Virus record (IMG/VR): IMGVR_UViG_3300028805_000060
Coordinates: 64,001-128,000 of that record
Length of the DNA: 64,000 nucleotides
From: a virus
Lineage: Duplodnaviria; Caudoviricetes
Reading direction: 5' to 3' (one strand)
Shown here: positions 18,801 to 47,950 of the stretch, one piece after another
Layout of the letters: every line of letters starts with the position of its first letter
Position numbering within the stretch: the first letter of the stretch is position 1
Translations under genes and position numbers: made by a program
Notes under the pieces: generated by a model
Seen by the model: only the letters and a program-made list of their open reading frames with translations
Told to the model about the DNA's origin: nothing
Databases searched by the model: none

Positions 18801-21644
18801 CGTTGTAGAGTCCATAATATTAAATAATATTGATTGAGAATCACAATCTATTTCCCCTACTAAACGAATAGGTGTATCTCCTCCTGATGAAAAATAAACT
18901 TCAAAATCAATCGTCTTTTCTAAAATTTTTCCAAATTCATCTGTAACTAAAAGTGTAGCAGAATATTTATTTTTATTATCTAGTTGACTATTAGATAGAC
19001 CATAGAAATTAACTTTAATCTCTTTATCAAATTGCTCCCCTGTATCTTGGATTACTTCTCCATATGAATTCTTTAAAATCCATCTATAGGATTCTCAAGA
19101 CGCTTTTTGTTGTTGATGATATTCACCTGTAAATTCAATTCCTCTCTTGTCTACACTACCATATTTAAACGGAGCATAATTTGAGTCAATAGTTAAATAT
19201 CCTTGTTCATAAATAGAAAACGGGTTTTCATCACTGTGTTTGAAATAACTTCGAATTTCATATTTATAAGGAACATTTGGGTCATCAGGATCTTGAGAAG
19301 GTATAGTCCCTAAAGTTGAATCATAAGTTACTTTTCATATAGTTTTATCTAAAGAATTAATTCTGATTCATTGAGTTTTATTGTCTCCTTCTCCAACGTA
19401 TCCATTTATTAACTTAATCCTTTGCCCTTTTTCAATATACTGATATGGAGAAATCAAAACCTCTCCGTCCGTATTATGTAGTACTTCGGTGTCATATTTA
19501 TTATATTGAACAGTTGAACTAATAGACCAGCTTGTATTTAAATATTTATATACAGCCCCTGTATTACGCCCTTTTTTGATAGCCATGAAAGTATTATTGT
19601 CCTCTGGTCCATATGTTTTTGTTATTTCTCAGATGAGATTTTCATTTGTATCTAATACTGCTTTTAATAAATAGGCTGATGCATAATTTCACGTCCCTGG
19701 TTGACCGTCTCTATAACAAACGTAGCATAAATCTCCTAATTGAACTTTTATCCCATCTATTTTATCTGTTGGTAGCAACAAAAGAAGAGAATTTATTATA
19801 GGAAAATAAATAATTTGAATAGCATAAGCAACTGCACCTGTAACAGCATTAAAAGTGATTCTACCTAGCTGTTGATCTATTTGAATATTGGTAGTGCTCC
19901 CCAATATATCTTGGACATAAATATTATAGCCATCCTTTGTTGGTACATCAACAGTAACTGTTTGAGTTTGGAATGTTGCAGATATTCTTTCTCCCATTAT
20001 TATATCATAAAATTGACTAAAAGTATAAATATTTTCTGATTTATTATTGAAAAGAACAAGAGGGAGTTCTTCTATCCAATAGAGAGGAGAATCCGCAGAT
20101 TTATATTGAGATGAATTATCTGTATAAAATAAAGTCCCTCCTACAAAAGCTTGAGATTGATAATTTTTTCCTCCATTTTTTTCTCCTGAAATTATAAAAA
20201 TTACTTTTCCCAAAAAATCTCCTCATTTAGCATAGCTCCCAGATCTTTTCCATGGAGCATCTCTATCATAAATATAAATTCCATTCTCTTTTGGATCATC
20301 TTGGTCTTTTACTAAAATTCTTTCCCCATTTGACAGAGAGTATCCATCTATGGCTCCTAAGCCAGGATTTGTTGGAGATTCGTCGACATACAAATTAATA
20401 TTTGATGTTGTGGCACAAGAAACTTTATCATTATCTAATATATATTCAGGGTTATTGCTATATTTATAAAAACGAGCATATTTTGCAATGTTTACTTCAT
20501 CTAAAGACAATTCTCCTTCTCTTGGATAAACGTGTCCTAAAGTAGAATCATATGAATTCACATAAATTCTGCTTGACACAATATTCGAACTATTTGAATC
20601 TGAATCTTCTGTAAAAAGTTCCATCCAAGTTCCTTGAAGCACAACAGGATTTTCTGAAGAAAAAGTTGGAATCATCCAATTTGGAGTAATTTCATCTCCA
20701 AAATTTTTAGCAATTTGAATTCTTTTAGTAGTTGTTCCTAAAATTTTTCCTGAAGAAAGGGTCATATCAAATCAATCATTTGACAAATTATCATAATTAA
20801 TACGATGCTCAATGATTACTCCCTCTCCTTGGAACAATTCTATTGATCACTTGTATGTTTTATTTTCAGTAGAAAATTCTATCTTATTACCTAGAAAATC
20901 TTCTCAACCATATTCTGTTGTTTCTTTAAGAGCTGGTATTGAAGTTTCATTTTCATCATATTCATATACTTTCCCTCCATACTGACCGCAAAGAATTAAA
21001 ATTTTCTCTCCTTCTTCCATATCTGAAAAAGTTTTAACAGGAATGAGACATTTACCTTCTCCTACTTGGAATATTCCTCCTATCGAATTTAATTGAAATA
21101 TCATTTTTGGAACTAAGACTAGATCTCCTACAGATACTTTATCTTGATTATTATTTATATAACCATCCCATGAAGATTCTCCGTCAACAAAATATTCTAA
21201 TTGAGGATTCCCTTGTTGATTATAAACAAGTTGCCAATTTGTCGTATCTGCTAAAAAATAATTAGCTTTATAATTAACAGAAAAATATACTGCATTATAA
21301 GAATCTAATTTAGATTCAGAATTGATATTCTGAAAAAATGGAATATATAAAAAAGTTCCGTTAATTCCTGTATTTGAATCTTGTTCATAATCTTCAGGTA
21401 AAAAATTTTGAAGTTCAGATACTGGGCTTATATATTTGTCCGAGTCTTTACTTGGAAAAATTTCATTATTGTTTTCATCAAAAATATGGATTCTATAACC
21501 TGTTATATTTTTATTAGATGTATTAATTTTACATTTAAGCCATTCAATATTAGGAACATTAGGACTTCCTATAATTTCAGGTACAGTTCTAATATCAATA
21601 TTATTTAAGAATGGATAACAAAATGTTGGTTTGTAAACTGCCAT
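15864..21644 (-). CDS. large distal-tail/baseplate structural protein (code 4, ~1926 aa)
   Basis: six ORF-track fragments in one frame joined by ~22 TGA codons with no TAA/TAG until 15864; contains RILVKDQDDPKENGIYI and a Dit-like segment (PKLLKDNKGQSW...INFSWKEI); directly after the TMP. Confidence 0.75.
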
Positions 21645-21808: not shown

Positions 21809-24800
21809 TTATCTCTTATTTTTTGTAAGAGAAACTCTTTCTCTGATAGAACGAACGAATGCGTCCGCATCAAAGCTTTCATCAGCTGCAACATTCATTG
21901 TAAGATTTTCAACATGGAATGATTCATCATTAACTGCTGAATTATTTCGTAAATTATCTAATGCTTTCGCTGAATTTAATCCTCTTAAGATATCAGGAGT
22001 CATTTCTCCTAATCTCCAAAGATTTGTTGTAATATCTGATGGAACAATACCTGTCTTAGAAGGTAAAGCTGTTAGAGTTCCTTGTGGTGTAACAATAGCT
22101 TCTGTACCAAATTCATTTAGAAGAGATAAACCACCAGCTGAAGATAGAGAACCTATAGAATATTCTATTGGCTTTAAATTATAAAATTTACCATTTTTAT
22201 CTTTATAAATATACTCTATCTCTCCATTAGCTGCTTTTAAGAGAGTCTCTTTACCAATTCATTCATTCGGGAAAGAACCTTCTTTAAATATTTGTTTTGC
22301 TTCTCACTTTTTTCATGCTGGTAATTGTGTCCACCCAGATGAAGGAATTTCATCCCCAGGAACTACACCCTCATAGAAAAATCCTTCTCCCAATGAAATA
22401 TCATTGATTAGATAATCTTTATAATCATCTGATAAACTATCCCCAATTATATAAGGTTGTCCATCTATCACGATAGGTTTTAAAGAGCTTCCAAAACGAC
22501 TTAAATCTCATCTTGCTGTAGTACTTGCATTTCAACGACCTGGAGATTTTAATATAGAATTGAAAAGAGTATCTTCTCCAAAATGTTCTTGTATCTTCCC
22601 TCGAGTTTCTTCTGAAAGATTTTTATCATTATAAATATCTCGAATTGTATTTGCTGCTTGAGCTCTATTCGTTTCATTTTGCTTCCAGTCTCTAGTAATA
22701 CTTAAAGCTCTTGAAATATTACTCTCTACAGCTGCATAATTTTCTCCTTCGGTAAATTTTTCTTCTGTATCTTGATCAATAGATTTATTATAATGTTCTT
22801 TAATATTTTCAAGAATTCCTAAAATAGAACTAGAAGAATCCGCTCCTATAACTTTTTTCGTTTCTTCAACGACAGCTTTCAGTCCTTCATAATCGGCGTC
22901 TTCTTTCCATTTAGTGAGAGAATCCTTAATTGATTGAAGTTCTGTAATTTGAACATCTAATTTTGAAATAATTTTTTCATTCTCGATATCTTCTAAAGCT
23001 TTTTGTTTTTCAAGAATATTTCCTTGATCGGCTTCATATACGAAACCCAATCCTTCTCTTCAAACTCTCTTCTTTTCTCTTTGTGCATTTTCAAGATCTA
23101 TTCTAGCTTTAATTAATTTGTTCTCATACTCTCTTTCTTTATTAACTTTTTGAATTTGATCTTTTTGAGCATTTAAATTAGAAATTTGATGATCCAAATC
23201 TTTACTTAAATAGTCTAGAGTTAAATCCATTAATTCATTTCACTTATCAGAAACTAAATCTAAACTATCTAAAATGTCGGTAGTTTCCTTTTTAATTGTA
23301 TCTAATTTTAATTCAGTTCCATCATCATCAAGTACTAATCCATTTCAGCTGTTTATCCAATCTATAAATTGTTTTCAAGTAGAAATTCCCATCAAATTTG
23401 TTCTTTGCATTATTTGATTTTCAAAAGAAGTATCATCTAATCCTGACGCTGTTTGAACTTCTTCAATTAATTTATCTCGATGTTCTCCAAAGAACTTTGG
23501 ATTACCAAGAACGTCTTCAAAAGAAGATTCATTATAGAGTTCAATTGTTTTAGTATATTTATCAATAAATTTACTTGCTAATTGTTGGCTATCTCCTAAA
23601 TATTCTATTAATTCAGGATAGTTCTTCACAATATATTCTTGGAATTTAAATGCATCAGTAAAAATTTTCGAAATTGAACTTATTCCTTCACTTAGTTTAT
23701 TTAGATTTTCTGTCAAAGCAGTAGTACCAGCATTTAATTCTCCTAAAGTAAAATCTTTTCAATATTCGACGATGTCAGAACCTTCTTTTAATGAATCTGT
23801 TGGTGTCTTTAAAGCAGAAGCAAAATCTTGTAAAAGTTCTTCATCCTTCTTTATAATAGCTTTATTCAAAGTGAAACTATTTCCTGTTCAGAAATCTCTT
23901 AAATTGTCGTTTTGTCTAATTGCCTTTGTAAACAATTCATCATTTAAAGAGTCCCTTTCTATCCCTAACGTATTTACCATGTAATCATTAATAACTTCTT
24001 TTAAGCCATTCCTTGAATACATAGAATATAAGTAATCTTGAGAAGCATCTTTTAATCAGATATTATTTTTATCTTGAATTGAATCAATTGCGGTTGAATA
24101 TCCTTCTTCAACAACCTTTGAATAATCATCTTCTCTCTTTTTTATATCAAACTCTAAACCAGAAATTATTTCTTCAAGTAATTCCTTAGTATATTCTTTA
24201 TTTGTGAAAACATGGGCAGTATTATCATCTAGTATCCAGGTGCTAAATAATGTATCAAAATGATTCAAAGCACCGTTTAAATGATCTAATACAGACTCTA
24301 AAGAGTCGCCGCCAACAAATTGCTTCACAAATCTAGCAGCTAATAGATGTCCTTGCCCTTTCCCATTTAAATTTTCTTTATATTCGGACAATTTAGTTCT
24401 TTCATCTAAAGAGAATTTGTCTTGAACCCCATTGAAATTTATTAGAGATTGTGCTGCTGTTAATGCATTATAAATTTTTGATATATTTTGAGAATCTAAT
24501 GAGAGATTATCTATTATTGATTTTAAAGAACCAGTATCTTCTACTTCTAATCCATTCTTATTCAAATATTTTACAAACTGCTCTCGGAAATCTTTCTCTG
24601 TATCCTTATCAGAAGAAACAGATTCTACTATTTCATTGACAGCATCATTCCACTTTTTAAAATCTTCACTTGTCCATTCATTAACACCTTTTACTGAATC
24701 TGCAATACTGTCTAAAGAAGATTTTATTTCATCCATCTTTTCTAAGATTTTCTCATTTCTTTTAATAGCTTGGAGTCTTGCAATCTTTTCTTCTTCAGAT

Positions 24801-27800
24801 GGCAAGTGTGCTGCTAAGAAAGGGAAAAACTCACTCACAAGAGCTTGGACAAGCATTCCTACCAAAGGTCCTCCTAAAGCTGTAGCAATTCCTGTTGCTG
24901 CTCCAGTAACAACACCAGAAAGAATTTTTGTATCAGCTGACATTTCATAAGTCTCACCGTCTTGTTGAATTGTTTTTGGAGCCGATAATCCTGCCATAAC
25001 ACCCGCTCCAACACCTGCGAGAGCTCTTGTGGCTATATTTGCACCCGATAACTTATTCTTTGCTTTAGGTTGTCCTTCTCCTTGAGGAGTCGAAGTATTA
25101 TCAGTTCCTCCTTGTGATGTACTAGATTGATTAGAAATTCCTTTATTACCTGTTTGTTGAACAGTTGTTTGAGTCTTTCCAGTAGAAGCCTTGTTCGAAC
25201 TTACTTCTCTATAAATTCCTTGAACATTTTCATCAAGATTTTGAACATGAACTCCAAAAGAAGTACTTAATTTTTCAGTCTGCTTATCATAGAAATTTCC
25301 TCCAAGGAGTTTTGCCTTTACCCCCTTTGATAATCCAGAGCCTCCTGTGAGTCCAAAGAACGAGCCTGCCATTTTTAATAATCCAGGAATCTTGTAAGTA
25401 TTTAACATAGCAAATAAAGTGCTACCATAACGGATAATTTTAGGAAGAGCTTTAACTAGCCCTGTAGAAACTTGAAGTATGCTTTTGAGAAAAGCAGCAA
25501 TATCTGCATTATTAGCTAATTCTTCTCATGCTGCTTGCAATTTCTTTGTCCAAGCCTCAATTGATTCTTGATACGCTTCATACTTCCTTTGAGCTGTTCC
25601 TGCTGATTCCTCAGACGTTTTTAAAAGCTCATGATATTTATCCATATTATCGAGTAATACTACAAATGAATTTCGTTGTCTTGTCAAAATTGTTGTTAAT
25701 AACCAAACGAAAATTGGCTATTTTTACCCGTTTTTCGGGCAGTAGAACATTTCTGTCTACTCTGCATTTTTGTCAAAAATTTAGATTATATATGCAGATC
25801 GGACTATAACTTCACCCTTTCGGGGAGGAACGTTTAGTCTCTACGGATTCTATTGTGTTATTTTTATTTTAAGAATTGTAATATTTTATTTTGTCAACTA
25901 CCATTATTGATATCTTCTGGGTATAAAGCAAGACATTTTACATTATATTTATGAATTAAATCTAATTTGCATTTTGTTTTCATGTCATAATTTTTATATC
26001 CTGTCAGACCAAAATATTCAATATATTTGTCATTTATTTTCCAGTCGAATCTTTTTTCTCCACATTCTTCTTTAGGAATCACTTCTTTATATAAAGCTTC
26101 TTTTTGGAATTTAAAATTATTATCTATTAAGAAATTAGAAATAATCTCTTCAGTTTTAGATAAACAAACATTGTTTAATTTATCATAAAATAGAGTATCA
26201 CTCATAATTAAATGTTGATAATTTTCTCTTTTTATTCCAATTAATTCAAAAGCTTTTGTCACACTACCAAAATACCTTCTAAAAGTTATTTCAGAAGGAA
26301 GTCCGTGCAATTGAAACTCTGCTATCAAAGGAGTTCTTTCTAATTTACGCACCACTTCTTCTAACTTTTCTAATAATACTTCTTTATCATACCATTTTAA
26401 TCCTTTCTCAGAATTCTTTTTGAGACCCAATCTTTTTGCCTGAGTTACTAATTCTTTTGGGGTTAAATTTGGATAATATTTTTCATGAAGATATTTATTA
26501 GTATATTTAGGATATAATTCTCTAAATTGTTCTTCGTCTTCTGTATGGATAGCATTTAACTTACGATAAGTAGGTAGATTATGTTCTTTTAATATTCTAC
26601 AAATAAAATCACTACTTCTTCCTAATTTTTCTGCCATTCTGGTTGGAGTCATAACTTGGTAATTATTTAAAATAAAATCAAGTTCTTCTTGCTTTAAATG
26701 ACATTTATTATAAATATCTCTTGAGAGATGATACCTTGATGCATAAGTAAGAATACTTGTTTTACTTTTTGTTCCTAAAATTTCATATAATTCTTTCCAA
26801 GGAGTATTCGGATAATATTGCTTTAGAAGTTCTATTTTTTCATCTGTTCATCTAAATCTGGCCATATTATTACCTCCTTTCTTTTTATAAATAACACAAT
26901 AGTCTTTCCTCGGTATTGCCCTTCTCAGGGGTTTCACCGATATGGTTCCTTTCTATTTAATTTATATAGCGTAAAATCATAGATTTCTCTATGTTCAGGC
27001 ACAAGACTTATCTACCTGCAAACGCTGTTGCAATTGCATTCTTAGAAACGTTATCTAATGTTATCCATTTTTCTGATAAATCTTCTAAGATATCATCAAA
27101 ATCTCTGAATTGTAAATTAGTATCTCTGACTGCAATTCCAATCTTTCCTAGAACTTTTTCTACATCGTTTAAATTACCTTCTGTATCAGAAGAATCATAG
27201 TCAGTGCTTAATTCATCAAAGGCCCCTGCTTTAACTGCACCATAACGAGATATAATTGTTTTCAATGCTTGTCCTACAGAGCTACCTGACTGTTGAGAAA
27301 CGTCGGCAATTGTAGCAACCATAGCTGATGCTTGGTCAATATTAATCCCGTTTAATCCTGCTAAGCTTGCAAATTGGCTTAAACCTGTTGCGATTTCTCC
27401 AGCTGAAGTTGCCGCTTTAATATCTATTGCTGTTAATTTATCAACAACTGACATTGCATCAGTAGCTTCTAACTTAAATCCTTTTAAACTGCTTGTTACT
27501 TTATGTTTAGTAGAGTCGTTAATTCTACCGTCTTACGACCTCATAGTTTCCCATGAGAACTGACTATATCATCACCCTTATTATAAGGGGGCACTTACTT
27601 CCATTCTACTTAGAATGTACTCTCTCTCGAGATAGTCGATGGGGCTGGATCCTAAAAGGATCCCTGCCTGCTGATTGCCCAATCTTTACTACTTCACTTC
27701 TGACTGAATCTTGCGATCTCAGTTAGTGAGTAAAGCTCTAAGGGTTTTCCAGCATATCAAGTGCTTTATTTTTCTAAATATTACTATTTAGCAGACCTAT

Positions 27801-30800
27801 TTTTATATTGTTAAGTCTTTTGTAGCAGTATTAACATCTAACATACCTAATTTACTTAAATACATAGATGCTGTGATTAATTTATTTGTTTCGCTAACAG
27901 AATAACCTTGTCTGAGCCACTCGTTCGCGCTTGTTGCAACTTCAGTTGTTGTTGCACCAATCTGCTTTGCAAGTTGTGCATAATCATTGATCATTTGCTT
28001 AGCTTGATCTGCATTAGCTCCTGATACAATACGGAGATTAGTCATAGCTTTATCAAGTTCTTTTGCTGCTTGAACAACTTTTTGAATACTACGACGAACG
28101 GTTTGCATTACTTTTGAAACAAGACCAAATCTCATGAAGTTTGTAAATGTTCTATTTAGTTGCTGTGATAATTGTCCCCAGAAAGTACTTTGACCTTTAT
28201 TTCTGACATTTTCTCCAGCTAAAGCTAATTTAAGAGATTTTTCTGCTTTATCTTTTATTTCGTTTAATTTGTCTGTACTATAGCCCTGTTTCTTATAGCT
28301 TTCTTCTGCAAGTTTGACTCTTTCTTCAGAAGCTTGTAAAGATTCTTTTATCGCCTCTTCTTGCTCTCTTAGAGAAGCCAATTCGACTTCATCCATAGTC
28401 ATAGCTTGACGATTTTTATTACTCTTTAACGAGAGAGCGTATCGATTATACTCTCTATAATCAGCTTTTAATCCACGTAAAGCTGCAGCTTCTTCTCTGT
28501 TAACACCAGCTTTTTCTTCTGGAAATACAGATTCTTTTATATCAGAAACCATTTTTTCAGCTTTTCACTGTTCTTTAGCATAAGCTTCGTCTTCATCAGT
28601 TCAGCCTTTAATGTCTTTGATCTTTTCTTTACTACGATTTAGTTGTGCTCTTCTAGCTGTTAAAGAATCTATTTCCTCTTCATATTCTTTTTTCTTTTTA
28701 TTTTCTTCGTCAGCCGCTTGCAAATCTCTATTGATTTCTTTTTGTTCTTCTGTTTTTGCTTCTTCCTTTAACTTATTAAGCTCGTCAATTCTAGCCTTAA
28801 CACTTTCTAGTTCATTAAAGAAAGCATAAAATTCTTTTAAATCATTCTTAGTAAGTTTTGTATCTTTTGAAACACTCTCTTTTGGTTTCGAAGAATTGGC
28901 CATGTTTGCAATTTTAAATTCAGCTGGAAGATTCTCTAACTTTGGACGAAGTTCCTTCTCAATTAATTCTTGAGCTTTAGGATCATCAATATTTCCTATT
29001 GCTATTAATTGCGCCATCAAGTTCTCAATTCCAAGTTTATTTAAAGAACTCATGTTTGCTTGCCAAGATCTTCCTTGTCCAGAGTCTGCAGTTCCTAATA
29101 TTTCTAAAGTAAGATTACTAAGATCATTGTTTTTCAAAAATTCAAACTCTTCTTTAGTAAGATCTTTTTTAGTAACTGTTCGATATTTTTCTCCATAAGC
29201 AGCAAGCATATCATCATAAGTATAATTCTTATTCTTAAATTCTGCCTGCATTTGCTTAGCAAGAGTTGCATACATTCCTACTTGGGCAATATATTGAGGC
29301 TTTAAAATCTCATCTATAGTTTTCCCTGTTTTAATATCAGACAAATATACTTTTCCGTCTTCTCCTATCGTGAATAAGTCAGAGAAACCATAAGAAGTAC
29401 TAGGATTACCATCTATATTATGAGAAGAAGCGAGAGGAGTTTCTGCTCCTATAAATTTTCTTCCCTTTGTTAATTTTAAAATATTTTGGATATTTTGATC
29501 TGTAACTGAACTAAATGTTTTAGAACCAGTAGCAGACTCAATAATGTCCATTATTTCTAATAACTCTTTAGGTCCACCTAATCTTTCTTTCATTAAAGAG
29601 AGTATATTTTCTGCTTCAGTAAGTTGGTCACCCTTATATTTATTAGATTTAACGCCTGTACGAAGTTCTCTCAAAATATCTTCTCATGAAGCATTATCAC
29701 GATCTACGCTACCTAAAGATAAATTCGCAGCATTAATTCTCTCACGAATATCTTCTATTCCACTTGCAGAACTAGACCAATATTTTTCATCTATTCTTTT
29801 TCGTTCATCTTCTGATAAACTATCATATATTTTCTTAAAATCATCTAAGGATGTTATATCTTTAAAAGCTTCTTCATTGGAACGGATATTAATTAAATTT
29901 TGCCCAATATTAGCCAATTTACCTCTGAATGTAGGGTATAAAATTTTTAAGAATTCATCTCTCTCCCTTTCAGAATCAAAACCTAATAACTTATCAGTTG
30001 ACCCTGTATTTTTATATCCTATAATTCTTTCATAAAATTCATTTTCTAATGATTCTGCTAAAGATGCTCCTTTAAATGGGAATAATATTTTTGTTAAACC
30101 AGTAACAGAGTTTGTCTTTCCAGTACCTCCCTGGTCTACCATATCAGAAACTTTTTGATAATTATCTATTCCTTCTTTGATACCTTTAGTAAGGTTATTG
30201 ATCTTAATAGTAAGGTTATCAATGCTCTCGTTAGCTCCATTAGCTGCTTTTTGTAAATTTTCAAAACTTTGCTTACTTTCATCGTTTATAGTTATATCTG
30301 CAACTGAAGCATTTCCTGTTCCAGGTAAATTTCTTTCATTTGTTTTTTTATTATAGAAATATGGATTAGAAACAATTTTATATAAATCTTGTTCTCCGTA
30401 AGATCCTAAATCTTTATTAAAATCTCGTAAGATATTACCAAATGATTTAAAAGAATATTTTCCGTCACTGGCATCTAGCCACTTTTCATCCCCAGTATAT
30501 TGATATAAAATAGCAGCAAGATTTTTTAATCTTTTTTTATCAAATGCTACATCCCCTGAAGTATCTGCGATGCCTCATTTTTCTAATACTGCTCCTAATC
30601 TACTTCACCCTTCTTTAGTTGTAAAAGTGCTTTCATCTTTTAAGACTTCTTCTATTTCGCTACCAATATTAGTTGTAATTTCTTGTAAAAATTTTTCATC
30701 ATCAAGAGAAGCATCAATACCAAGCGCTTCTCCTAGAGCTGTTTTATCTCCTTTATATCGATTTAATAATTTTTCAAAAACTTTTTTCGAACTAATGGCA

Positions 30801-33800
30801 TCTTGAGAAAGAGAAGTAAAAAATTCTGAAGCATACTGTGCTCCAACAGAAGTTTGGAATCTTTCATTACCTTTTATTGAATTAAGGAAGCCTTGTCTGA
30901 TATTATCAAAAACACCAATTTTATCACGATTTTGTCTTGTAGCGAGTTCTGCTGCTGAAGCAGCTAAACTATTCCCACGAGAAGCAAAATCGTCTAAAGT
31001 AATGATGTCAGAAGAAGTTTTATCTTCTTCATATAATTTTTGATTTTTCTTTTCAAAAGACTTCATTATTTTTGTTCGTTTTCTAAAAAGTTCTAATTGT
31101 TTTAATAAAACTTCTGTATAAGCTTTTGCTTGCTCTTCTGTAATATTACCTGCAGCAAATTCTGATCTGACATTTGCTAATGCATTTGCAATTGTATCTC
31201 CATCAACGTCGGCATTAAGAATATCCATTGTCTGTGAATCGACTTGGATTGCGTCACCTAAATTTCTCTTACTAGAGGCAAAAAGCTCTGTAATAGGAAG
31301 GTTCTGGCCATTCAATAGAGGGAAACGAGTTAAGAACTGAAGAAGTCCTTTTGCGTTTTCTTTGTCGAAACCTTCTTTATCAATATCGACGGCATCTATT
31401 ATCTTTTCGATAACAGACTGTGGAGTATCATCTTCTGAAATTTTTATACCAAGACGATCTGCCTCTCTATACAAACCTTTTTTGTATCCTTCTTCATCTT
31501 CTCCTTCTGCTCGTTTGAGCATTTGTCTTAAACGTTCAGTAGAAACTATTCCTACAGCTCCCCTAGAAAGAATACCAGAATCTCCTCCCGAAATAATTCT
31601 ACTAAAAGCAGAATGAGATAAACGAGCATTATGAAGAGACTTGTATTTTTCAGATTTTTTATTATTAACAGAGTCTCACATATCCTTAAGTGCCGTATAA
31701 GCACTTTCGTTCATTTGTTCCTGAATTCTCTCTTTTTGTTGCCTAGTTGTAGAACCCGCTATTTGAGTTAAACCAGAACGCTTAGAGTGAATAAGACCTT
31801 CCATTGCCTTAATATTTTCTAAAGCAAGGAATCCTTCTGCATTATCTTTTGGAACAAGATATTGTGTTCCATCTTCATCTTCTACTATCTCAAATGCATC
31901 TGAATAGTTTCCAAATTGAATTGCATCACCTTTTATATTTACTCCATTTTCATCAGTATAATTATAAGCATAATCTAGGTAAGCATCTTTACCTTCAGAT
32001 TGAGCTTTATATACCTCTCCGAATATTGAGTTTTGAAAGTCTTCTAGACGGAAACCTCTTCTCCCATTAAAATCTACTTGTTCTAGACCTGCATGCCCTG
32101 CAATTTTTTCATTGCTTCAAGGAATAATAACTCCCTGCTCACTTGCTATTTCGTCGGCAGTCTTTTGACTCCCTCTAATAATGTCATCAACAAGATTTAC
32201 CGATCTTCCTCCTTCTTCTTTCGAAAGATCTAAGTTATTTTCATACACTGTTTTTAGAACATTCTTTGCAACAGAAGCTGTTTCTTTAGAAATTAATCCT
32301 GCTTTGACTGCAGCATCAGCTTCTCTTTCAAAGTCATTTATCATTTTATAGCCCATATTAACAGGACGACCACCTTTTCGAGTCGGATCAAAATATGTAG
32401 CTACATCCTGAATGTTCCATCTTTCAATACCAATAACTCCACCGTTACTCTTAGTTTGTATTGAATCTTCTGTAACTTTGAATTGAGAATCTTCGCCAGT
32501 CGCATAGACAAAAGCCTTTATAAAATCAAAACCAAAATTTTGGCTAAGTAAATTCTTTTCCTCTTCTGACAAAGAATCAAAATTTTTATTTTCTTCAATA
32601 ACTTCTTTATAAATTTTGTTAAAATTTCCAAAAATAAAACTACCATCTTCTGACATGCCTTTAAAATATTTATCAACAAAATCACTAGGTTTTATTTTAA
32701 GTTTATTTAAAATTGGTTTTAGTTTTTTTGTTGCTTTCATAAAAGCTTCGGTGAAGTCAGTTTTGGCTTCATTGTATTTTTGATTTCTTCCTTCTTCACT
32801 TTCAGCATTTCTTATTGCTTGAGATCTTATAGAAGTAAATTCATTAATAATAGAAGGAATATTTTCTCCTAATTTACGAGAACCTGTCTTAAGTTCTGTA
32901 ATCATATGCACATTCAAAGAACCATCTCGATTAAAAATATCTTTAGGATCAAATCCAGCTTTAATTAGAGCTTGCGCTAAAATTGCATTTTTTACAGTAA
33001 TAACTACTCCATGAAGTCCTGATTCTGCAGCTATTTTTTCTCCTGTTTTTAATTGAGCATATTCTTTTACAGAAGCAATTACCTCTCCTTCTTCATTTTT
33101 TTCGAGATCTACATGATATTTGTCACCTTTTCCTTTTAAGTGAAGAACACTTCTTAATGCTGCTTGATCAACATAATCTTTTTGACCCTGAGATAATTTT
33201 TCATCTAATTTAGTAATATATCTATCAATTTTTTCGAGCTCTTGATCATTCATTTTAGATCTTTCTTCTGGATTTAAATATCTTTCAATTAAAGGGTCAT
33301 CTTTCAGATCCTTTTTATTCATTTTAAGAAGAAGCTCTTTTTTCTTTTGCTCTATTTTTTTTAGTTTATCTGTATCTAATTCAACTTTATCGATTTCTCT
33401 TAAAGAAGTGAGGATATTTTTATTTCCTTTTCGCCCTGAGGTATGACTAATTTGTTCAGATACTAAAACTTGTTCATAATCTCTCCCAAAAGAAAAATCA
33501 CTTTCTGGAAAGATCTCATCAAAAAGTTTTCCTTTCTCCTCTTCAGACATTTTACCATTTTTATCTAAAGCCTTTTTCATGTCTTTCATTCTATGAGCTT
33601 TTTGTGCTGCTTGATTCCAAATAGCTGTAGGAATTTTTGATTCACCCTTAATAAAAGACTCTCTCATTATTTTTCTAAGATCTTGTCCGCTCGTATGATC
33701 ATTTGTTTTCGCATGACGAAGACCAACACCTTGTCCAAGACTTTGAAGCTCTACTCCTGTATTTTTTGCATATTCATATGTTTGAGCTGAGACATTCCCA

Positions 33801-34930
33801 ACATCAATTTTAGCAGAGCTCTTTTTTCTACCAATATTTTTTAATCCCATATTACCAGCTTTCGCGCCTCTGCTCCCTCTTTGAGCAAATTCTTGACCTG
33901 GAGTAAGAGAAGAACCATGACCGATAGAGATATTACCTTTTGACAAAGCTGTTTCTGCTATGTTACTAAAAGTCACAGGGGTTATCTTTGCCATTTTTAA
34001 TAAATCTGTTTTCATCCCAGCCCAAGCAGGCGATTTAGTAATATAATCATATTGGGAATTACCTTCTATTCCTTTTATAATTTTATCTGCTTCTTTGGGA
34101 TTAGTAGCAGCTAAAAAATAAATTGATTTTAGATTAGACTCAATTTGTCTCTTATAATAGATACTGTTTTCTTTATTGTTATATTTAGCAATTTGGTTAG
34201 AATATTCTTCTTGGATTTGCCTGATACGTACTCCAAAATTAAGTCTTTGTGTTTTTAATAAATTTTCATTAATTTTAGTTATATCAATACCTAATTCTTT
34301 AGAGAGCTCTTTTTTAGCCTCATCCATTTCTGCTTTAGTAGCGACTAAAGTATCAACGTTATTTATAGAAGAAGCGGGATAAAAATATTTTCTAATATCA
34401 TCCCTTTTTGATTGAGGTAAAGAACCTGTGCTTCTAATTTCTTTATTAGCTTCTCTAATCATTGCTTGAATTTTGCCACCAGGTTTACTTATAAGTTCTG
34501 CTAATGTATCAAATTCAGCTTCTTGAAGAGTACACCAACCTTCCTCTCCTGTTCTTTTACTTCTATAGTAAACGAGACTATTAGCTTCTTGGTGTCCGTT
34601 TTTAGAAATTATACCTGCTCCTGTCTCTAAGGCAAACCCATATTCAACTCCTAATTCAGGATGCCCTTTTGGATAAAATACTAATTGATCTTTACTATCA
34701 TCAATTCCACAATCTCAGTTAAGCGATCCAAGATAAGAATATATATCATTAAGAGAGCGCTGAACAGAAATAGCTCTAGAAATAGAGTTCTCTTTAATTT
34801 GAGTTAATTCACTTTTAGTTAGCTCTTCTCCCAGAGTAATATCTAAACGAGAAGAAAAATATTCACCTGTATAGCTTTTATACTTTTCACCAAGTATTGA
34901 TTGTATATCACTTATATTTCTTATAGCCAT
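21809..34930 (-). CDS. giant tape measure protein fused to an N-terminal two-barrel RNA polymerase-like region and a PD-(D/E)XK nuclease domain; 3 exons (34930-27814, 27498-27014, 25684-21809), ~3825 aa, code 4
   Basis: all fragments share one frame once TGA=Trp and two introns are removed; TP901-type TMP core (ELDKAMTNLRIVSG, EWLRQG, VVDKLTAID, GQALKTIISR, AFAGTRQRN); KKRVWREGLGFVYEAD; NADVDGD at 31196-31216. Confidence 0.85.
25685..27013 (-). mobile_element. group I intron with homing endonuclease ORF (1329 nt)
   Basis: 5' exon CAGGU pairs with GCCUG (U.G wobble); P10 GUCUUGU pairs with 3' exon ACAAGAC; P 26932-26941, Q 26908-26917, R GTAGAGACTA 25835-25844, S AAGTTATAGTCC 25801-25812; terminal G at 25685; splicing restores AFAG|TRQRN. 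Confidence 0.9.
25864..26865 (-). CDS. intron-encoded homing endonuclease (N-terminal helical repeats plus C-terminal PD-(D/E)XK/Vsr-like domain), 333 aa, code 4
   Basis: AAGGAGG RBS; MARFR-TGA-TDEKIELLKQYYP; repeat YDKEVLLEKL...TP...PSEITFRRYFGS; SKTEEIISNFL...RFDW...IEYFG; flanked by the CTATTGTGTTA/TAACACAATAG stem. Confidence 0.75.
27499..27813 (-). mobile_element. group I intron without ORF (315 nt)
   Basis: P1 GACU|UA pairs with UAGGUC (U.G at the splice site); P ATGCTGGAAA 27746-27755, Q AATCAGCAGG 27667-27676, R CATCGACTA 27633-27641, S GATATAGTC 27562-27570, P3 GCACTT/AAGTGC; terminal G at 27499; splicing restores KDLTSSLKGFKLEA. Confidence 0.92.
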
Positions 34931-34945
34931 AATAATTCCTCCTTT

Positions 34946-35014
34946 CTATAGAATAAATAGAGAATTATCTGAAATTCTCTTACCTGTGTTATTATTTGAT
35001 ATCTTTACTTTCAT
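34946..35014 (-). CDS. possible 22-aa leader peptide
   Basis: GGAGG RBS, MKVKISNNNTGKRISDNSLFIL-TAG, ending just before the RBS of the TMP-RNAP gene. Confidence 0.3.
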   Translation of the reverse strand: MKVKISNNNTGKRISDNSLFIL

Positions 35015-35132: not shown

Positions 35133-36083
35133 TTAAATAGTTTTATATTCTAATAACTTGTTATGTTGATAACATTTTCCATCTTCAATAACTAATACAT
35201 TGCATACTCCACTGTAAGCTGTGCAAGCATCAATTGCAATAAGATTTGGGGAATAGAAAATATTAAAATCAATTTCAGTCTTATCTCTTGTTCTTCAATA
35301 ATCAGTGCCATAGTAATGAACTTTAAATTCAAAACAATGCCAATGGCCACATACTAATATTTTTCCTTTTTCTTTTTCTGAATCAAATAAACCTCTGTCA
35401 AACAAAGCATATGGACAACCTCAAGTTGCTTGTTCAAAATCTTCATTAGATGAATTCGTTCTCCAGTCTTCTTTTTCAAACAATGATTCATAGTTCGGTT
35501 GATACATGTGCATCCCTTTAGGTTTATTCACAGGAATAAAAGCATGACAGAAAATATAATTGTCTAATTCAAAATAATCATTTCACTCATTAGAATCAAA
35601 AATCCAATTTAAAATATCAGTTTTTTTCACTTTATTAACAATTTTTTTCCATATCTTTTTGCCATAAGCAATGTCATTTTTTGTAACCCAACTAAAACAA
35701 TAATTTTCCATTGAATCTATTATTTCTTTAAGATATTCATAATCTGTTTTTAAAGAACTCTCTTCATGAAGGTTTAACCCTGCTAATTGAAAAACTGTTA
35801 ACATAGTCCCATTGCTGATATCATAACTATTAGGGAGAGATTTATTAAGAAGGTCTCTCAATAGATATTCATGATTGCCTCTAATTAATATTCTTTTTTC
35901 TTTTGGCAATGTTCTAACAAAATTTAAAGTTTCTAAAGTTTGATCACCTCTGTCAAAAAGATCCCCATTTATAATAAGAATATGTTCATCATTATTAATA
36001 TCAAACCCTGCTTCATCTAAAGCCTGTTTAAATGGGGTAAAAAAACTATGAACATCTGATGTGATAAAATATTTTTTACTCAT
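35133..36083 (-). CDS. calcineurin-like metallophosphoesterase (code 4, 316 aa)
   Basis: SDVH, GDLFDRG, GNHE; read-through supplies the missing CHA and CGHWH motifs and IAIDACTAYSG. Confidence 0.88.
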
Positions 36084-36121
36084 TTTTCTTCTCTCCTTGG
36101 AACCGTTAATTTTGATTACAT

Positions 36122-38398
36122 TTATCTCTCTAAGAATTTTTCTCTTAGAGAGATAATGTCTGTTTTGAATGGATATTCTTTTGTTTCTTTGTTATAATAA
36201 GTATTATACAATTCTTTACAATATCCATAGAATAAGTTCTCTATACTAGAAGTTAGCATACCTGTTTTAGTGATATAGCCACATCTTAAAGTAGTCTGTG
36301 CTACACCTCTTAATTTTTTCCATAATTTATAATATCCTGTTTTTAATTTTGTCATAAAACCATTCTGATCTACAAAAACAAAACCTTCGATAAATTCATC
36401 GTTATATTTATAATCTTCTTCTTGAGATTCATAATAGAGATTTCTAAAATCTTCCCAAGTTTTTAATTCATATAACTTTTGTTTAATAGGGCAACCAATG
36501 TAAGTTGCAATATTTTGTAGTCTAGAATAATCTAAAATTTCATATTCTAATTCATTTTTAACCCCATCTAAAAGAACAAGTTTAGATTCATTATATTTAA
36601 TAATATGAGAGTCTTTTTCTATATCTATGCATTCAAACACTAAAGAATAACTATCTCCATCCTCATAGGCTGTTTTTAATAACTTTAATGTTTTTTCATA
36701 ATAAGGTTTCAATTGTTGCTTAATATATTCAACATAATCTCCACCTGTTGTAGATTTAGAAGCTATAAATAAATTATCTTTATTTGGATTATATGAAACT
36801 ATTGCTAAGAAACCATTCTCCTTTAAATAGGCTTTAACAGGAAAAGCTAGTTTATTTTTCAAAGTAGCTAATTCAGTTTCAGGTCTTTCATTAATATTAA
36901 AGAACTTTTGATATGACCTTGCTATAATACTATTATTTATAGTATCAATAAATAATCCTCTTGCTAAAACGGTCTGTCTATTCCAGTTTCCTTTTAAAAA
37001 GGCTTCTCTACTAAAATTGAATGATGAAATACCATCAGATAATGTTTTTTCATTTACAAATTTATTATTTCTTAAATAGGCAATTGCTTCTTCTACCGTT
37101 TTAACTTTTCGTTCTTCTGTAACTAAATTTTCATCTACAGGTTGACAATCTTCTAATTCAATAATATTCCAGCCAAATAAAGTATTTAAGCCATACGGAA
37201 TTCTATCCCCAGATTCAGTTATTCCATAAGCTGGAATTATACCTTTAGTTTCTAATTCAACAATTCTTAAATTACCACCAAACTCGACTTTACCTTCCAA
37301 GTTAAAAACTCTATCGGCAAGTCTGGTTTCAGAATCTTCTGTATTTCTATGCCCATGAATTAAGTATTGATTATCTTTAGTTTGACCCATCCAAGATTCA
37401 GCAATAGTTAAATAATCTTCATAATTTCCTACGCCTTTAATTATAGATTTAGTAGGAAAATATAATAAATTAGTATTTAAATTAGGAATACCTCCATGAC
37501 AAGCAAGTATTTCTACCCCATTGTACATTATGTGAGAAAATTGTCTAAATTTTCTATACAATTCCCTAGCAGATTTTTCACTAAATCCTTTGGCAATTAA
37601 TTCTTTTTTAGTTTTATACTCAAACTCATTTGAATTTGTAGGAGACCCACAACCATAATCATACAAATGTCTCTCATGATTGCCTTCTAATAAACAAACA
37701 TTTGGTTTATCTTTAATAGAATTTAAGAATTGTAAAACTTCTACATTCTGATTTCCACGATCAATATAATCACCTAAAAAGATGTATTCAGTATCATCTT
37801 TTAATCCATTTTTAAAATCTGGATATTGCATTAGAGTATCATAACAACCATGAATATCTCCAACAAAAACCAACTTTTTATACTCAGATAAATCAACTGG
37901 CTTCTCTAAAATCTGATCTAGCTCATTAGGTTTAACAACAGTTACCCCTGAAGGAACTGACTGTGTAGCAAATCTAGCATATATATTTTCTATGGCTTTT
38001 TGAGGAACTTGTTTGTATTCAGGTCTCATCTTATTTTGAGCAATACAAGTCTCTAAAGGAACATCAGTAAAATCAACACAATACATCCTATATCTATAAG
38101 AAGATGCAAGATTTTTATATTGTTGTATATCTTTTGTCTTTGATGCAGTTGCATCAATAACTGTGAACTCACCACGAGACATTCTATACTCAAGAATTTT
38201 GAATAATACTTCCCAAGTCATAGATTCATTTTCTCTATTCTGAGATATTTTTAATTCCCCTGTAGGTTGCATTTCTAATGAACTGCAATATACTCTTAAA
38301 TCATCAGGTGAAAGAGTATAAGGTTCTAAATGATGTTCTTTGATCCAAGTCGTCTTACCTGCACCTGGAGCTCCTCTTAATATAACTAATGTTCTCAC
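36122..38398 (-). CDS. polynucleotide kinase - metallophosphatase - T4 Rnl1-like RNA ligase fusion (RNA repair)
   Basis: GAPGAGKT P-loop, SPDDLR, IDAT; GDIHG, GDYIDRG, GNHE, HGH; ARGLF, KFFN, KENG (adenylated Lys motif), EGFV, KLK. Confidence 0.9.
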   Translation of the reverse strand: MRTLVILRGAPGAGKTTWIKEHHLEPYTLSPDDLRVYCSSLEMQPTGELKISQNRENESMTWEVLFKILEYRMSRGEFTVIDATASKTKDIQQYKNLASSYRYRMYCVDFTDVPLETCIAQNKMRPEYKQVPQKAIENIYARFATQSVPSGVTVVKPNELDQILEKPVDLSEYKKLVFVGDIHGCYDTLMQYPDFKNGLKDDTEYIFLGDYIDRGNQNVEVLQFLNSIKDKPNVCLLEGNHERHLYDYGCGSPTNSNEFEYKTKKELIAKGFSEKSARELYRKFRQFSHIMYNGVEILACHGGIPNLNTNLLYFPTKSIIKGVGNYEDYLTIAESWMGQTKDNQYLIHGHRNTEDSETRLADRVFNLEGKVEFGGNLRIVELETKGIIPAYGITESGDRIPYGLNTLFGWNIIELEDCQPVDENLVTEERKVKTVEEAIAYLRNNKFVNEKTLSDGISSFNFSREAFLKGNWNRQTVLARGLFIDTINNSIIARSYQKFFNINERPETELATLKNKLAFPVKAYLKENGFLAIVSYNPNKDNLFIASKSTTGGDYVEYIKQQLKPYYEKTLKLLKTAYEDGDSYSLVFECIDIEKDSHIIKYNESKLVLLDGVKNELEYEILDYSRLQNIATYIGCPIKQKLYELKTWEDFRNLYYESQEEDYKYNDEFIEGFVFVDQNGFMTKLKTGYYKLWKKLRGVAQTTLRCGYITKTGMLTSSIENLFYGYCKELYNTYYNKETKEYPFKTDIISLREKFLER

Positions 38399-40937: not shown

Positions 40938-41147
40938 TTAGTATAAGAATGTAGGGTGTATATCTATATAAACACCACCAGACGCACTATGTCTAATCAT
41001 TCTAAATAAAACACCATTGCAACTAGAAGGAGGATAAAATATAGTACTATAACCATTTTCAAGACCCATAGTAGTTGCATTCCCTATTGTTATTGATCCA
41101 GTGTTATCTATTGGGCTATCAAAGAATAGAATTAAATCAAAATACAT
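40938..41147 (-). CDS. small hypothetical ORF, or frameshifted C-terminus of the upstream fibre
   Basis: overlaps the end of the giant fibre in another frame; no clear RBS. Confidence 0.35.
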   Translation of the reverse strand: MYFDLILFFDSPIDNTGSITIGNATTMGLENGYSTIFYPPSSCNGVLFRMIRHSASGGVYIDIHPTFLY

Positions 41148-44100
41148 ACTGGCTGTAGTCGAATATCAAATAAATAAGTATGAGTACTATTTGAAAAAGT
41201 GTCAGTATAATAACCTGCTCCTCCACCAATACTCGTTTTATATGCAGCTAAATAACGTCCATTTTTTGATGCTACTTTAAACCATAAATATCTAAAGGTT
41301 GAACCTGATGCCCCATCTGCTAAACTTACCATTGGGGAACTATACGTCCACGTAGGATTAGCTGAAGAACTTGGATTCGCGCTTTGTATTTTTACATCTC
41401 CATATTTAGATTCCAAAATATTTATGGTTCCTTGATGTGATGAACTATATCCTAAATAATTAATATTTATCTGCCCATTATTTGAACTGTTTCCTAAATA
41501 GTTAATAGTCCTTGTCCCTGTCATATAAGAGATACTACCAGTATTACTATAAGTACTTATTGATCCTGTTCCACTTAAAGTTGTAATTGATCCATTGTTT
41601 GCAAGAGAAGTTACAGTTTTTCTAGATGGGATTGTACCTTCTAAAGCTTTAAAATAAATATTTGAGCCTGTTTCTGTATTTCCGCCTATTCTTACTTCAC
41701 CATATGTATTAGTAATTATATTAACGGTTCCTTTATTACTTGCATTATATCCATTATTAGAGATAGTCAATGTTCCAGAAGAACCCGATCTTCCTAATGT
41801 AGTGATGGTCCTTGATCCAGTCATATTAGTAATAGTACCAGTATTTGTATAAGTACCAATGGTTCCACTACCTGAATAAGTACCAATAACTGAGTTAGCA
41901 CTATTAGTAAGAGTGGTAACTGTTGTTTTATAAGAAGAGTTATAAGAATAAATAGATAAAGATGGAACTGTAAGTGATTGTTGAACGGTACTGCCCGTTA
42001 TATTATATCCTAAATTTATACTATTAACTTGAGTAACATTTACGGTACCATTGCTAGAACTGCTTGTAACCCCAACAGTACTATTAGAAACATTAGTTAT
42101 ACTAATCCTTCTATATGTATTATTATTGATTGTTAAATATGATGTAGTATCATAAGCTGTATCATCTTTCATATCAACTGCAAATGGAACATCTTGTGGA
42201 ACAGTTATTTTATTAATATAATATTTACTTCCTGTAAGAGAACCTGAGGTATCACCATAAGTCCCAGTGGCAATCCATCCAGCAGTAGAAACAGAATAAT
42301 TTCTTGATACACCTGAAGCTGAAGGTTCTACATATATTCCATTATTTGTGCTTGTAAACGTAACGTTTGCCTTGTGAGAATCATCAATGGAAATAGTACC
42401 ACTCGTTGTTGATGATGCCGATCCACTATGATTACTTACTGCCTTAATTGTATAATATCGTTTTGATACATTATAACCTTCAGGAAGGTTTAAATATTGA
42501 TCTCAAGTACCAGGAGTAATATTTGCTACAGAACTACCTGACGCTGTTGTGCTTGAAGTACTTGTAGGTAAATTTATTTGATTTAATAAGCCATTTAGAT
42601 CCGTAACTGTTATATATGAAGGATCGTCTAAAGAATCACCATAAGGAATGGAAATTGCACATTCTTGCATATCAACGATTGGAAAATCTGGATAATATTC
42701 ATTATATATTTTAATTATTCCATAGTTACAAGGGACATTTAATTCCCCTCCTGTTTCATCTTCAGCTCCAATATAAACAGTTAAAGTTTTATCAGGTTTA
42801 ACGAACAAATTATCAATATACTTAGGTCCAAAAATAGCACTTCCGTATGTCCCTGTAGAAATTCATCCTGAAGTACTAACTGTATATCCTCCTGAAGAAG
42901 CACTGATTGATATTCCAGAGGTATTAGTGTCAGATAAAGTAGCATGACCAGCATAGAGAGTATTTGATCCTGAAGACCCTGATTGACTTCTCACAGTATA
43001 ATTCTGAACTGTTCCATTATTAATAGAACTAATTCAACCTGCCGTTCCTACGCTTGCTGTAGGTGTAATTTTAAAGTATTGAGAAGTAACTGAAGTAGGA
43101 GAAGTTCCTGCTGAGCTTAAAGTAGCATAAGACGCACTTGGAGTAGCTGCACCTGCTCTAACTGTTGCAGTTGCATAAGCTGCAACATTAGTTGAAGTTG
43201 ATTGTGTCAACTCAATATTTCCTGTAGGACCACCTAATGTTTTGTAATACCTATCGCTGTTATAATAACCAGCTGCTAACTTATATGTTGTTCCTGCAGC
43301 TAATTCTGTAGGAGTTGTTCCTTGAGGAGCTGTTGCTGTTCCTCATGTAGCAGTTGGAATAGTATAATATTGGTCTTTAGAACTTGCATTAGCTGTTGCT
43401 GTTGCTGTTGAGCTAACAGTTTTTTGAGTACTACTTGTAGAAGCATCAGTATAACCTTTTGTTCATGTAATAGTACTTGATTCACCAGCAGTCGAAGAAC
43501 CTGTCGTAGCACTATTTCCACCCGTTGCTTTAATATAATAACCTGAAGAAGGTTGAGATGAAGCAGCTGTTAATGAAATATTACCTGTAGCTGAAGCAAC
43601 AGCTGTTGGTGTTACTGAAGGTGAAACCGATAATGAACTATCACTGACTGAAACTGAACTTGAATCAATTGGGTAATAAGCAGTAGTAGAATTAGCCGCT
43701 GCAGTAGCCGTAGCTGTCGAAGTAATTGTTTCTGTTCCTTCTGTAATATAGCCAGTAGTTTTTGTTACTGTAGCACTTTCTCCACTAGTCGCACTACCTG
43801 TAGTAGCTGAGTTCCCACCGACAACGCTGATATATCTACCAGAAGTTGGTTGAGTGGTTGTTTTAGTTCCTAAAGTAATGCTTGATCCAGTTGCACTTAC
43901 TGTTGCTGTTGGTGTTACTGAAGGTGATACTGATAAAGATTTATCGTCTATTGCTACACTTCCAGCTGCAATTTTACCTACTTGTGTGGCTGTTCCAGCT
44001 TGAACCGCTCCAGAATTTGTAAATCAACCAGCTGTTCCTGCAGTAATAGTTCCTTTAACTTTTGCACTGACTGGATAATAGCCAGAAGCAACAGTACCGA

Positions 44101-47100: not shown

Positions 47101-47950
47101 TTTCAGGGTTTTGTGTAATAGAAACCTCACCAGAACCTTTTGATAATCCTCCTCCTGATAATCCTCCACCAGAGGCAGTTCCTTTAGATAATCCTCCACC
47201 ACTAACTGATACACTAGCACTTGCTAATGGAATATAATAAACACTAGAAGAATTATTACCAACTGAAACTGTTGTACCAGTAATTGAAGAATGAGAACTA
47301 TCTCCATATCCAGCACTAGACACATTAGCCGATATTGTTAATGTACTACTATTACTTGGAACATAAACTGCAGCATAGTAATAGTTTATATCAGAAGTAT
47401 TAGTAGTAGGAGTTATCGCTATTTGAGATTTACTTGATACTGGTGAAGGAAGAGTTCCTATAGTAGGAGTTACTTTTGCAGTACCACTTTGAGTGGCAGT
47501 AATCCCTATAAGAGGAAGAGTTGTAGTACCAGTAGCAGTAGATGTGTTTCTAGTTCCAGCACTAGATGAAATATATCCAGCAGTACCTACTGTTGGAGCA
47601 CTAACAGTACCTGATAAGGTAACATCGAAGTTCGAATTAGTAGAATTATATGAGATATTTTTACTGACTGAACTATATGAAGTTCCAGATGTGACTGTTG
47701 CTTTTGGTCCTTCAGAATTTGCTTTCACTGTAACTGTACCTAATGCCATATACCCAGTATCTTTAGTAATAGCTTGTTCAGTAGCACTAGGAGTTACAGT
47801 TTTGTTTTGATAATTAACGATCCTTGATGAAAAATTTTGAGGATCAATTTTATTAGCATCTGTAAGAGGAGTAGTTGCGGTTCCATCTGTTGCACGAATG
47901 GTGTTCGCGATGTCTGTAAGAAAATCTGTTAAATTGTTATTCTTAGCCAT
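41132..47950 (-). CDS. giant Ser/Thr/Gly/Ala-rich fibre/adhesin with internal repeats (code 4, ~2272 aa)
   Basis: ORFs 44198..47950, 42503..42808 and 41132..42172 share one frame joined only by TGA codons; NLTDFLTDIANTIR N-terminus; GYHNGSGKV and GYY repeat motifs. Confidence 0.75.

Follow-up and report, generated by a model that had tools for sequence, protein, structure and literature searches.

We analyzed a window of 64,000 nucleotides, corresponding to bases 64001-128000 of the 144,870-bp IMG/VR virus record IMGVR_UViG_3300028805_000060, which is rated complete by CheckV. The window has a G+C content of ~30% and carries nearly all of its genes on the minus strand. Our subject is its tape-measure gene, which encodes a protein of 3,825 amino acids (aa), hereafter P0001. 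From the N-terminus, a polymerase-like module, a nuclease domain, and a coiled-coil region precede its TP901-type tape-measure core. The module comprises the first ~1,500 residues (30431..34930, on the minus strand like all features of this gene) and is collinear with residues 25-2128 of a homolog, P0003. We propose that this module is probably a two-barrel RNA polymerase (RNAP) carried by the tape measure.

The gene is assembled from three exons read with translation table 4. Under table 11, the 21.8-34.9 kb region breaks up into more than 10 open reading frames (ORFs), whereas table 4 yields three long ORFs and one inserted ORF; the first of these, at 27803..34930(-), opens as a 2,375-aa ORF containing 8 TGA codons. 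Joining exons 27814-34930, 27014-27498, and 21809-25684 gives a spliced coding sequence (CDS) from 34930 to 21809 of 11,478 nt, or 3,825 aa, with no internal stop. An initial annotation of this DNA had proposed a single spliced code-4 ORF of ~3825 aa over the same interval, and we recovered it at exactly that size along with the strings it had quoted: RDYEQVLVSE at residues 483-492, GEKIAAESGLHGVV at 630-643, R1202-F-P1204, and NADVDGD at 1239-1245 (window 31216-31196). Its statement that the gene is invisible to standard gene calling also holds, as TGA recoding and two introns together split the gene into more than 10 fragments. The start ATG at 34930 is preceded by GAAAGGAGG at 34938-34946, a strong ribosome-binding site, and a terminator-like hairpin lies between the tape-measure gene and its upstream gene.

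Exon 1 (27814..34930, residues 1-2372) ends within the TP901 core, where a 315-nt group I intron without an ORF (27499..27813) interrupts the gene. This intron scores 58.1 bits with Rfam RF00028, above the gathering threshold of 50 (E = 1.3e-13; fold z = -4.8), has a U before its 5' splice site and a terminal G, and restores the frame upon removal, with the junction after U27814 reading KDL|TSSLKGF. Exon 2 (27014..27498) encodes ~161 aa from the middle of the core and matches PF10145 profile positions 77-201 (66.2 bits, E = 4.7e-18). The second intron (25685..27013) is 1,329 nt long and contains a homing-endonuclease-type ORF at 25864..26937 (HNH_repeat PF18780, E = 1.8e-9); its boundaries are U27014 as the last exon base and G25685 as the last intron base, which restores AFAG|TRQRN. 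We read both introns as self-splicing group I introns; the Rfam match of the second is partial and weak (14.9 bits), which would be unsurprising given the ORF inserted in it. Exon 3 (21809..25684) is collinear with residues 2662-3742 of P0003, matches the tape-measure family phrog_4211 (E = 2.3e-11), and carries one membrane-like hydrophobic run.

The exon structure is mirrored by homologs. P0003, from a standard-code contig, is collinear with window 34879-22784 and crosses both gaps uninterrupted, at residues 2502|2501 and 2661|2662; neither it nor P0008, another standard-code homolog, has either intron. A relative with 67% identity occurs on two independent metagenome contigs (L003:11382-13317 and L004:9639-11574) with the same interrupted core and an HNH_repeat ORF, and the intron with its homing endonuclease is therefore conserved in the lineage.

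Three observations support the reading of TGA as a tryptophan codon in this phage. The TGA codon at W1452, within LEKWGIA, falls at an invariant Trp of the standard-code homologs; the finished CDS contains 21 TGA and 19 TGG codons and stops at TAA; and the genome encodes a tRNA with the anticodon UCA. This 100-nt tRNA gene (record position 45455-45554, minus strand, outside the window) lies among a cluster of six tRNA genes, is labeled ‘SeC’ by ARAGORN, and is likely a TGA-decoding suppressor.

The C-terminal part of P0001 is a TP901-type tape measure, as had been proposed. TIGR01760, the TP901 core model, exceeds its cut-off of 28.8 both at the end of exon 1 (31.7 bits) and on exon 2 (47.9 bits), the PF10145 match is split by intron 1, and exon 3 contributes the PHROG match. 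Between the polymerase-like module and this core lies a PD-(D/E)XK (RecB/Cas4-like) nuclease domain (29231..29563) with the motif D1865-IKTG...Q-x3-Y. Pfam model PF12705 detects the domain in the part of P0003 aligned to it (E = 7.6e-7), and P0001 carries the nuclease motif as well. Its D, K, Q, and Y residues are invariant in the family alignment (D...DxK...QxxxY), and the domain is conserved in close homologs; Pfam detects no nuclease domain in P0008 or P0009.

Relatives of P0001 are rare. Among 1.84 billion representatives, an exhaustive HMMER search recovered just four, and word-index searches added three (P0006, P0008, and P0009), resulting in a family of eight (P0001-P0006, P0008, and P0009). 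No further homologs were found in IMG/VR, GTDB genomes, JGI metagenomes, or 50,697 GenBank phages; the sequence is known from metagenome assemblies alone, with no isolate, and no deposited phage genome among those searched carries the family. The contigs of P0003 and P0008 bear the SPbeta-family genes YomU (tube), YorF, and YorH, which places the family in SPbeta-like siphophages. On the contig of P0009, an IS605 OrfB / Cas12f-like TnpB pair is found a few genes downstream (L007:21489-22660).

The N-terminal module is truly fused to the tape measure. It lies in the same exon 1 as the beginning of the PF10145/TIGR01760 core, and three homologs contain the module and PF10145 within single standard-code ORFs (P0003, 4,067 aa; P0008, 4,004 aa; P0009, 4,297 aa). 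The shared exon and these three uninterrupted homologs establish the fusion and rule out that the N-terminal region is a separate gene, a possibility that the initial annotation had itself raised. The motif described next is absent from 17 related tape measures (P0010-P0026). Since related tape measures without the module exist, the module behaves as an accreted cargo domain.

The feature that points to a polymerase is a block of ~46 residues resembling the metal-binding loop of the RNAP beta-prime subunit. N1239-A-D-V-D-G-D1245 (31196..31216) contains the candidate Mg-binding Asp triad of a beta-prime-type double-psi beta-barrel (DPBB-A) and aligns to E. coli NADFDGD, with an RxP element, R1202-F-P1204 (31319..31327), upstream. 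Residues R1202, P1204, N1239, D1241, D1243, G1244, and D1245 are unchanged in all eight family sequences, the sole exception within the block being A1240, which is Gly in one; identity over this region ranges from 20 to 80% within the family and is as low as 20-35% to P0001. The Asp triad, whose conservation had been named as a check, is thus kept throughout (D1241/D1243/D1245, 8/8).

The spacing of these elements is comparable to that in known two-barrel enzymes, among them gp96 of Thermus phage P23-45, which had been cited as a precedent for a tape-measure-fused RNAP and is indeed as described in PMC10770324 (Chaban et al. 2024). From R to the first Asp there are 39 residues here, as against 38 in both P23-45 polymerases (gp96 and gp64) and 35 in the beta-prime subunit of E. 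coli. The same authors surveyed viral two-barrel RNAPs with the filter [RK]xPx{20,100}DxDxD (PMC10770324), which P0001 fits with 36 residues between R1202-x-P and D1241.

Profile comparisons support the resemblance. Aligned with hhalign to E. coli beta-prime, the family pairs with LLNRAPTLH...AIQL...NADFDGD at 35% identity over 46 columns (P = 0.0012). When a hidden Markov model (HMM) of the family was scored on real DPBB-A segments and on 2,000 composition-matched shuffles of each, the beta-prime and gp96 segments beat 2000/2000 and the gp64 segment 1997/2000. With P0009, the distant member, hhalign extends the alignment through RFP...NADYDGD and into the motifs downstream of it (probability 80%, E = 1.3e-5). 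Eight short segments searched against 24,736 Pfam models matched six families, two of which are RNA polymerase catalytic-subunit families on the catalytic loop: RNA_pol_Rpb1_2 (PF00623; E = 0.11, 13.2 bits versus a threshold of 25.3) and baculovirus LEF-9 (E = 0.17, 10.9 bits versus 27), both sub-threshold. For families specified beforehand, an E of 0.1 across the library amounts to a probability of ~4e-6 per family. In the ESM-Atlas, the top named cluster for residues 1150-1480 is RdRP (PF05183) with a score of 0.80, which serves as a lead only. Judged by sequence, then, the ~46-residue block reads as a polymerase-type DPBB-A loop, its likeness to known barrels being above chance in these targeted tests and below every curated threshold, and the initial comparison of RxP...NADVDGD with the beta-prime Mg-binding loop is supported by its invariance in the family, the hhalign alignment, and the shuffle controls. 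Beyond this block, GxFDN and Q-x2-ISSKK are conserved 100-150 residues past the triad.

The same genome encodes a free polymerase. Counted from the left end of the record, P0007 (985 aa; record 1862-4819, plus strand, outside the window) is the first large gene; it contains 7 TGA codons and DYDGD at residue 550, and matches PF05183 (RdRP) with 41.8 bits against a cut-off of 23.8. Its relatives occur in Bacillus SPbeta-like phages, Clostridium phage c-st, and Enterocloster phages, which identifies it as a YonO-type RNAP. In several Enterocloster and fecal phages, these relatives are also located at the left genome end.

We favor the view, to which we assign a rough probability of 0.65, that the N-terminal ~1,500 residues of P0001 are a genuine tape-measure-fused two-barrel polymerase, highly diverged and single-chain, and most likely a virion-delivered DNA-dependent RNAP. 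In this view the gene model, the fusion, the invariant RxP...NADxDGD signature, and the second RNAP gene are observed, and we infer where the second barrel lies, the fold as a pair of barrels, enzymatic activity, incorporation into virions, and the timing of action. The reading of the initial annotation, a virion-delivered or decayed RNAP, is supported as far as the fusion and the catalytic loop are concerned; its likeness to the beta barrel is at chance level, and both structural models are of low confidence.

The results that weigh against a polymerase are of several kinds, the first concerning the reach of the evidence. The DPBB-A tests largely re-measure one ~46-residue block and do not speak to the remainder of the enzyme. 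Neither the whole of P0001 nor parts of it matched a polymerase at a curated threshold in Pfam, PHROG, NCBIfam, or PDB sequences, and hhalign found no similarity between the family profile and P0007. Against residues 1-1200 of gp96, the family profile reaches a probability of 1.2%, with only the DxDGD loop aligned, which places P0001 outside the gp96 family, as an analogue in architecture only. AlphaFold2 models of residues 430-1500 (6-sequence alignment) and 1095-1500 (8-sequence alignment) have a mean predicted local distance difference test (pLDDT) score of 57.4 and 52.5, respectively, with values below 50 around both motifs. Searching the PDB with these low-confidence models, Foldseek returned no match below E = 0.24, and Foldseek and VIA-align gave only generic helical matches. 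The similarity of the region of GxFDN and Q-x2-ISSKK to the bridge-helix/trigger-loop segments of RpoC, gp96, and gp64 was reached by 722, 51, and 547 of 2,000 shuffles, respectively, and is not significant.

The failure of any database family to match at threshold and the lack of a barrel in the predicted structures would also be expected if the motifs were coincidental and the N-terminal 1,500 residues formed an unrelated domain, for ejection or as cargo, whose fold is unknown. We consider this the slimmest of prospects: an RxP and NADxDGD at the P23-45 spacing should arise, by our estimate from residue frequencies, only ~5e-6 times per protein of this size, and the block is family-invariant and beats all shuffles when compared with the real beta-prime and gp96 barrels.

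The second set of difficulties for the polymerase concerns its other barrel (DPBB-B), for which there are two candidate positions. Candidate 1, G630-EKIAAESGLHGVV-643 (33002..33043), contains K632 and H640. Upstream of it, R483-DYEQVLVSE-492 (33455..33484) is a candidate for the beta NFEDSILVSE element. K632, G638-L-H-G641, E486, and Q487 are invariant in four family members that share 23-26% identity. Candidate 2, T851-RKGGRPVNMGYK-863 (32342..32380), contains K853-G854, and its KGGRP...GYK is conserved in P0001, P0002, P0003, and P0008. Compared with the reference barrels of beta, gp96, and gp64, neither candidate rises above chance, and the score of the family HMM on the real beta barrel is reached by 195/2,000 shuffles. 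The proposal that GEKIAAESGLHGVV is a beta DPBB motif thus stands for the string itself, its His-for-Lys replacement, and its conservation in the family, and finds no support above chance in its likeness to beta. The likeness of RDYEQVLVSE to NFEDSILVSE finds no statistical support in the family HMM shuffles, though E486-Q487 are family-invariant.

All six solved two-barrel polymerases, PolD included, have a Lys-Gly in strand beta4 (PMC10770324, Supplementary Fig. 8), and candidate 1 has His (H640) where these have Lys. Of the two Lys positions proposed for a conservation check, the first (K632) is invariant in four members, while the second is an invariant His (GLHG). Candidate 2 follows a beta-rich stretch, with strands predicted just upstream in the low-confidence AlphaFold model 1, and is 388 residues from the Asp triad, compared to 609 for candidate 1 and an estimated 178-264 in gp64, gp96, and QDE-1. 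The second barrel may be reconciled with the solved enzymes in one of two ways: His may substitute for Lys in this subfamily, or the true DPBB-B element may be T851-RKGGRPVNMGYK, with its Lys-Gly.

Other sites were considered for the beta-type barrel. A BLOSUM window scan with the beta motif has its best ungapped match in P0001 at 492-509 (SGRKGNKNI; 84/3000 shuffles), which was rejected as a beta element since the site is not conserved in P0003 or P0008. The P0009 sequence EKKAYRSGNKDV, in which both Lys are present, aligns weakly at candidate 1 (hhalign alternative alignment, E = 0.14) and was rejected as a significant match to beta KMAGRHGNKGV (281/3000 shuffles). An ESM-Atlas search with residues 465-720 gave no usable match.

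Taken at face value, a region that offers no assignable second barrel bearing the universal Lys (His occupying that position in candidate 1), in which no bridge helix or trigger loop is detectable, and which belongs to a phage that already has a complete YonO-like RNAP might be a relic. It would then retain a beta-prime-type barrel or metal-binding loop without being a polymerase, either decayed or exapted for DNA or RNA binding, for a different Mg-dependent reaction, or as a plug or pilot domain. We regard this as unlikely, though it deserves a serious hearing, because invariance of NADxDGD and RxP at 20-35% identity is what a selected active site would be expected to show, and the strictly conserved flanking motifs (GxFDN and ISSKK) suggest a larger functional core.

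A two-barrel enzyme need not be a transcriptase. The superfamily includes PolD and RNA-dependent polymerases, and a RecB-like nuclease is fused directly downstream of the module, unlike in gp96, which has a metallopeptidase. A primase-like, DNA-polymerising, or RNA-dependent enzyme acting with the PD-(D/E)XK nuclease would process or prime the end of the incoming genome. This seems quite improbable to us, since it is in DNA-dependent RNA polymerases, cellular and viral, that the motif takes the form NADxDGD with RxP, the best alignment is to beta-prime, and the weak Pfam matches are to RNAP families.

If the module is an RNAP, as we favor, its mode of action can be sketched by analogy to P23-45 gp96. 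The tape measure with its polymerase head would be assembled inside the lumen of the tail and be ejected upon infection. Its tape-measure portion would then form a conduit through the envelope, and the head, held at the cytoplasmic end, would transcribe the phage DNA that enters first, at a time when no phage protein has yet been made. The YonO-like gene of the phage itself, near the left end of the record, is a candidate target. As a more detailed and tentative scenario, which we hold at somewhat less than even odds, the tape measures of SPbeta-like siphophages captured, along with a RecB-like nuclease, a lineage of single-chain two-barrel RNAP whose catalytic motifs are nearer to cellular beta/beta-prime than to any single-chain RNAP of phages; delivered by the tail, the resulting machine would transcribe and perhaps process the entering genome and start a two-polymerase cascade with the YonO-like enzyme.

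Several neighboring features accompany the gene. Directly upstream of it, window 35133-38398 (-) encodes an RNA-repair pair in an unusual place, normally that of the tail chaperone genes; the pair consists of a Pnkp-like fusion of a kinase, a metallophosphatase, and a T4-type RNA ligase (758 aa) and a separate 316-aa metallophosphoesterase, the latter syntenic in the 67% relative. Immediately downstream, a 1,926-aa ORF (15864-21644, minus strand; 22 TGA) is probably a distal tail or baseplate protein; its sole match, at residues 406-505, is shared with virion, fibre, and decoration PHROGs. A 2,272-aa ORF at 41132-47950 (-), with 7 TGA codons, is matched by neither Pfam nor PHROG. When k-mers were screened for promoters specific to the phage, only one motif emerged, the TATAAT-containing GAATCTATAAT, which may be an extended host-type -10 element. 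It is present in only 6-8 copies genome-wide, six of them intergenic (genome positions 1341(+), 42271(-), 46004(-), 50522(-), 62515(-), and 78515(-), the last being window 14515); every intergenic copy is oriented with local transcription, and one is located ~500 nt upstream of the YonO-like gene.

Should the favored reading be correct, polymerase delivery on the tape measure would be a recurring solution that extends to mesophilic SPbeta-like metagenomic phages; under the more tentative capture scenario, fusion of an RNAP to a tape measure would have had two or more origins and would be a strategy of infection in general, not an oddity of one Thermus phage. The family would also form a new branch of the two-barrel polymerase tree with cellular-type motifs, and as a natural variant, whose second barrel has either His or a Lys that is displaced, it would bear on which residues are indispensable. 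Comparable enzymes may be systematically missed by standard annotation, given the recoding and introns seen here.

Among known polymerases, E. coli RpoC provides the best alignment of the catalytic block (LxRxP...AIQ[LV]...NADxDGD), and the order of RpoB and RpoC motifs, beta then beta-prime, is matched by the K-x7-[K/H]-G motif upstream of that block, the beta-like motif being at chance level. Unlike the E. coli enzyme, the module is a single chain, scores below Pfam thresholds, and has no flap, bridge helix, or trigger loop detectable by sequence. SPbeta YonO and other QDE-1-type (PF05183) enzymes are comparable as single-chain RNAPs of SPbeta-like phages, of which P0007 is an example in this very genome; YonO is a free, non-virion enzyme, whereas the module is fused to a structural protein. 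The virion RNAP (vRNAP) of phage N4 is T7-like and not two-barrel. Together with gp66 from phi14:2, a crAss-like phage, it exemplifies the placement of a polymerase within a very large virion protein ejected into the host, as is proposed for P0001; these two are carried in a podophage capsid or ejectosome, not on a siphophage tape measure.

The closest parallel is P23-45. Its gp96 tape measure carries an active N-terminal RNAP that was at first recognised only by DFDGD and transcribes the pre-early genes, including the gene of the free enzyme, and its authors called the association of tape measure and RNAP previously unsuspected (PMC10770324). Our literature search found no other paper linking tape measures with two-barrel polymerases, the fusion having been described only for P23-45 and its close relatives. 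Like gp96, P0001 joins an N-terminal polymerase-like module to a giant tape measure in one polypeptide and presents an RxP, ~36 residues, and a DxDGD, and in both genomes there is a second, free-standing RNAP gene. The two differ in the position of the catalytic Asp (1241 here, 779 in gp96), in its setting (cellular-form NADxDGD versus GVDFDGD), and in the accompanying domains, with a PD-(D/E)XK nuclease and a TP901-type core here and a metallopeptidase in gp96. The phages are also dissimilar, the present one being mesophilic, AT-rich, TGA-recoded, and SPbeta-like, with two introns in this gene and a YonO-like second RNAP that is not detectably paralogous to the fused one. P0001 is thus probably a second case of a tape-measure-borne polymerase, of a kind already described in 2024, and what is new is the probable existence of a family unrelated to gp96 in sequence. 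With one free polymerase and one putative tape-measure-borne polymerase, its phage mirrors the P23-45 scheme.

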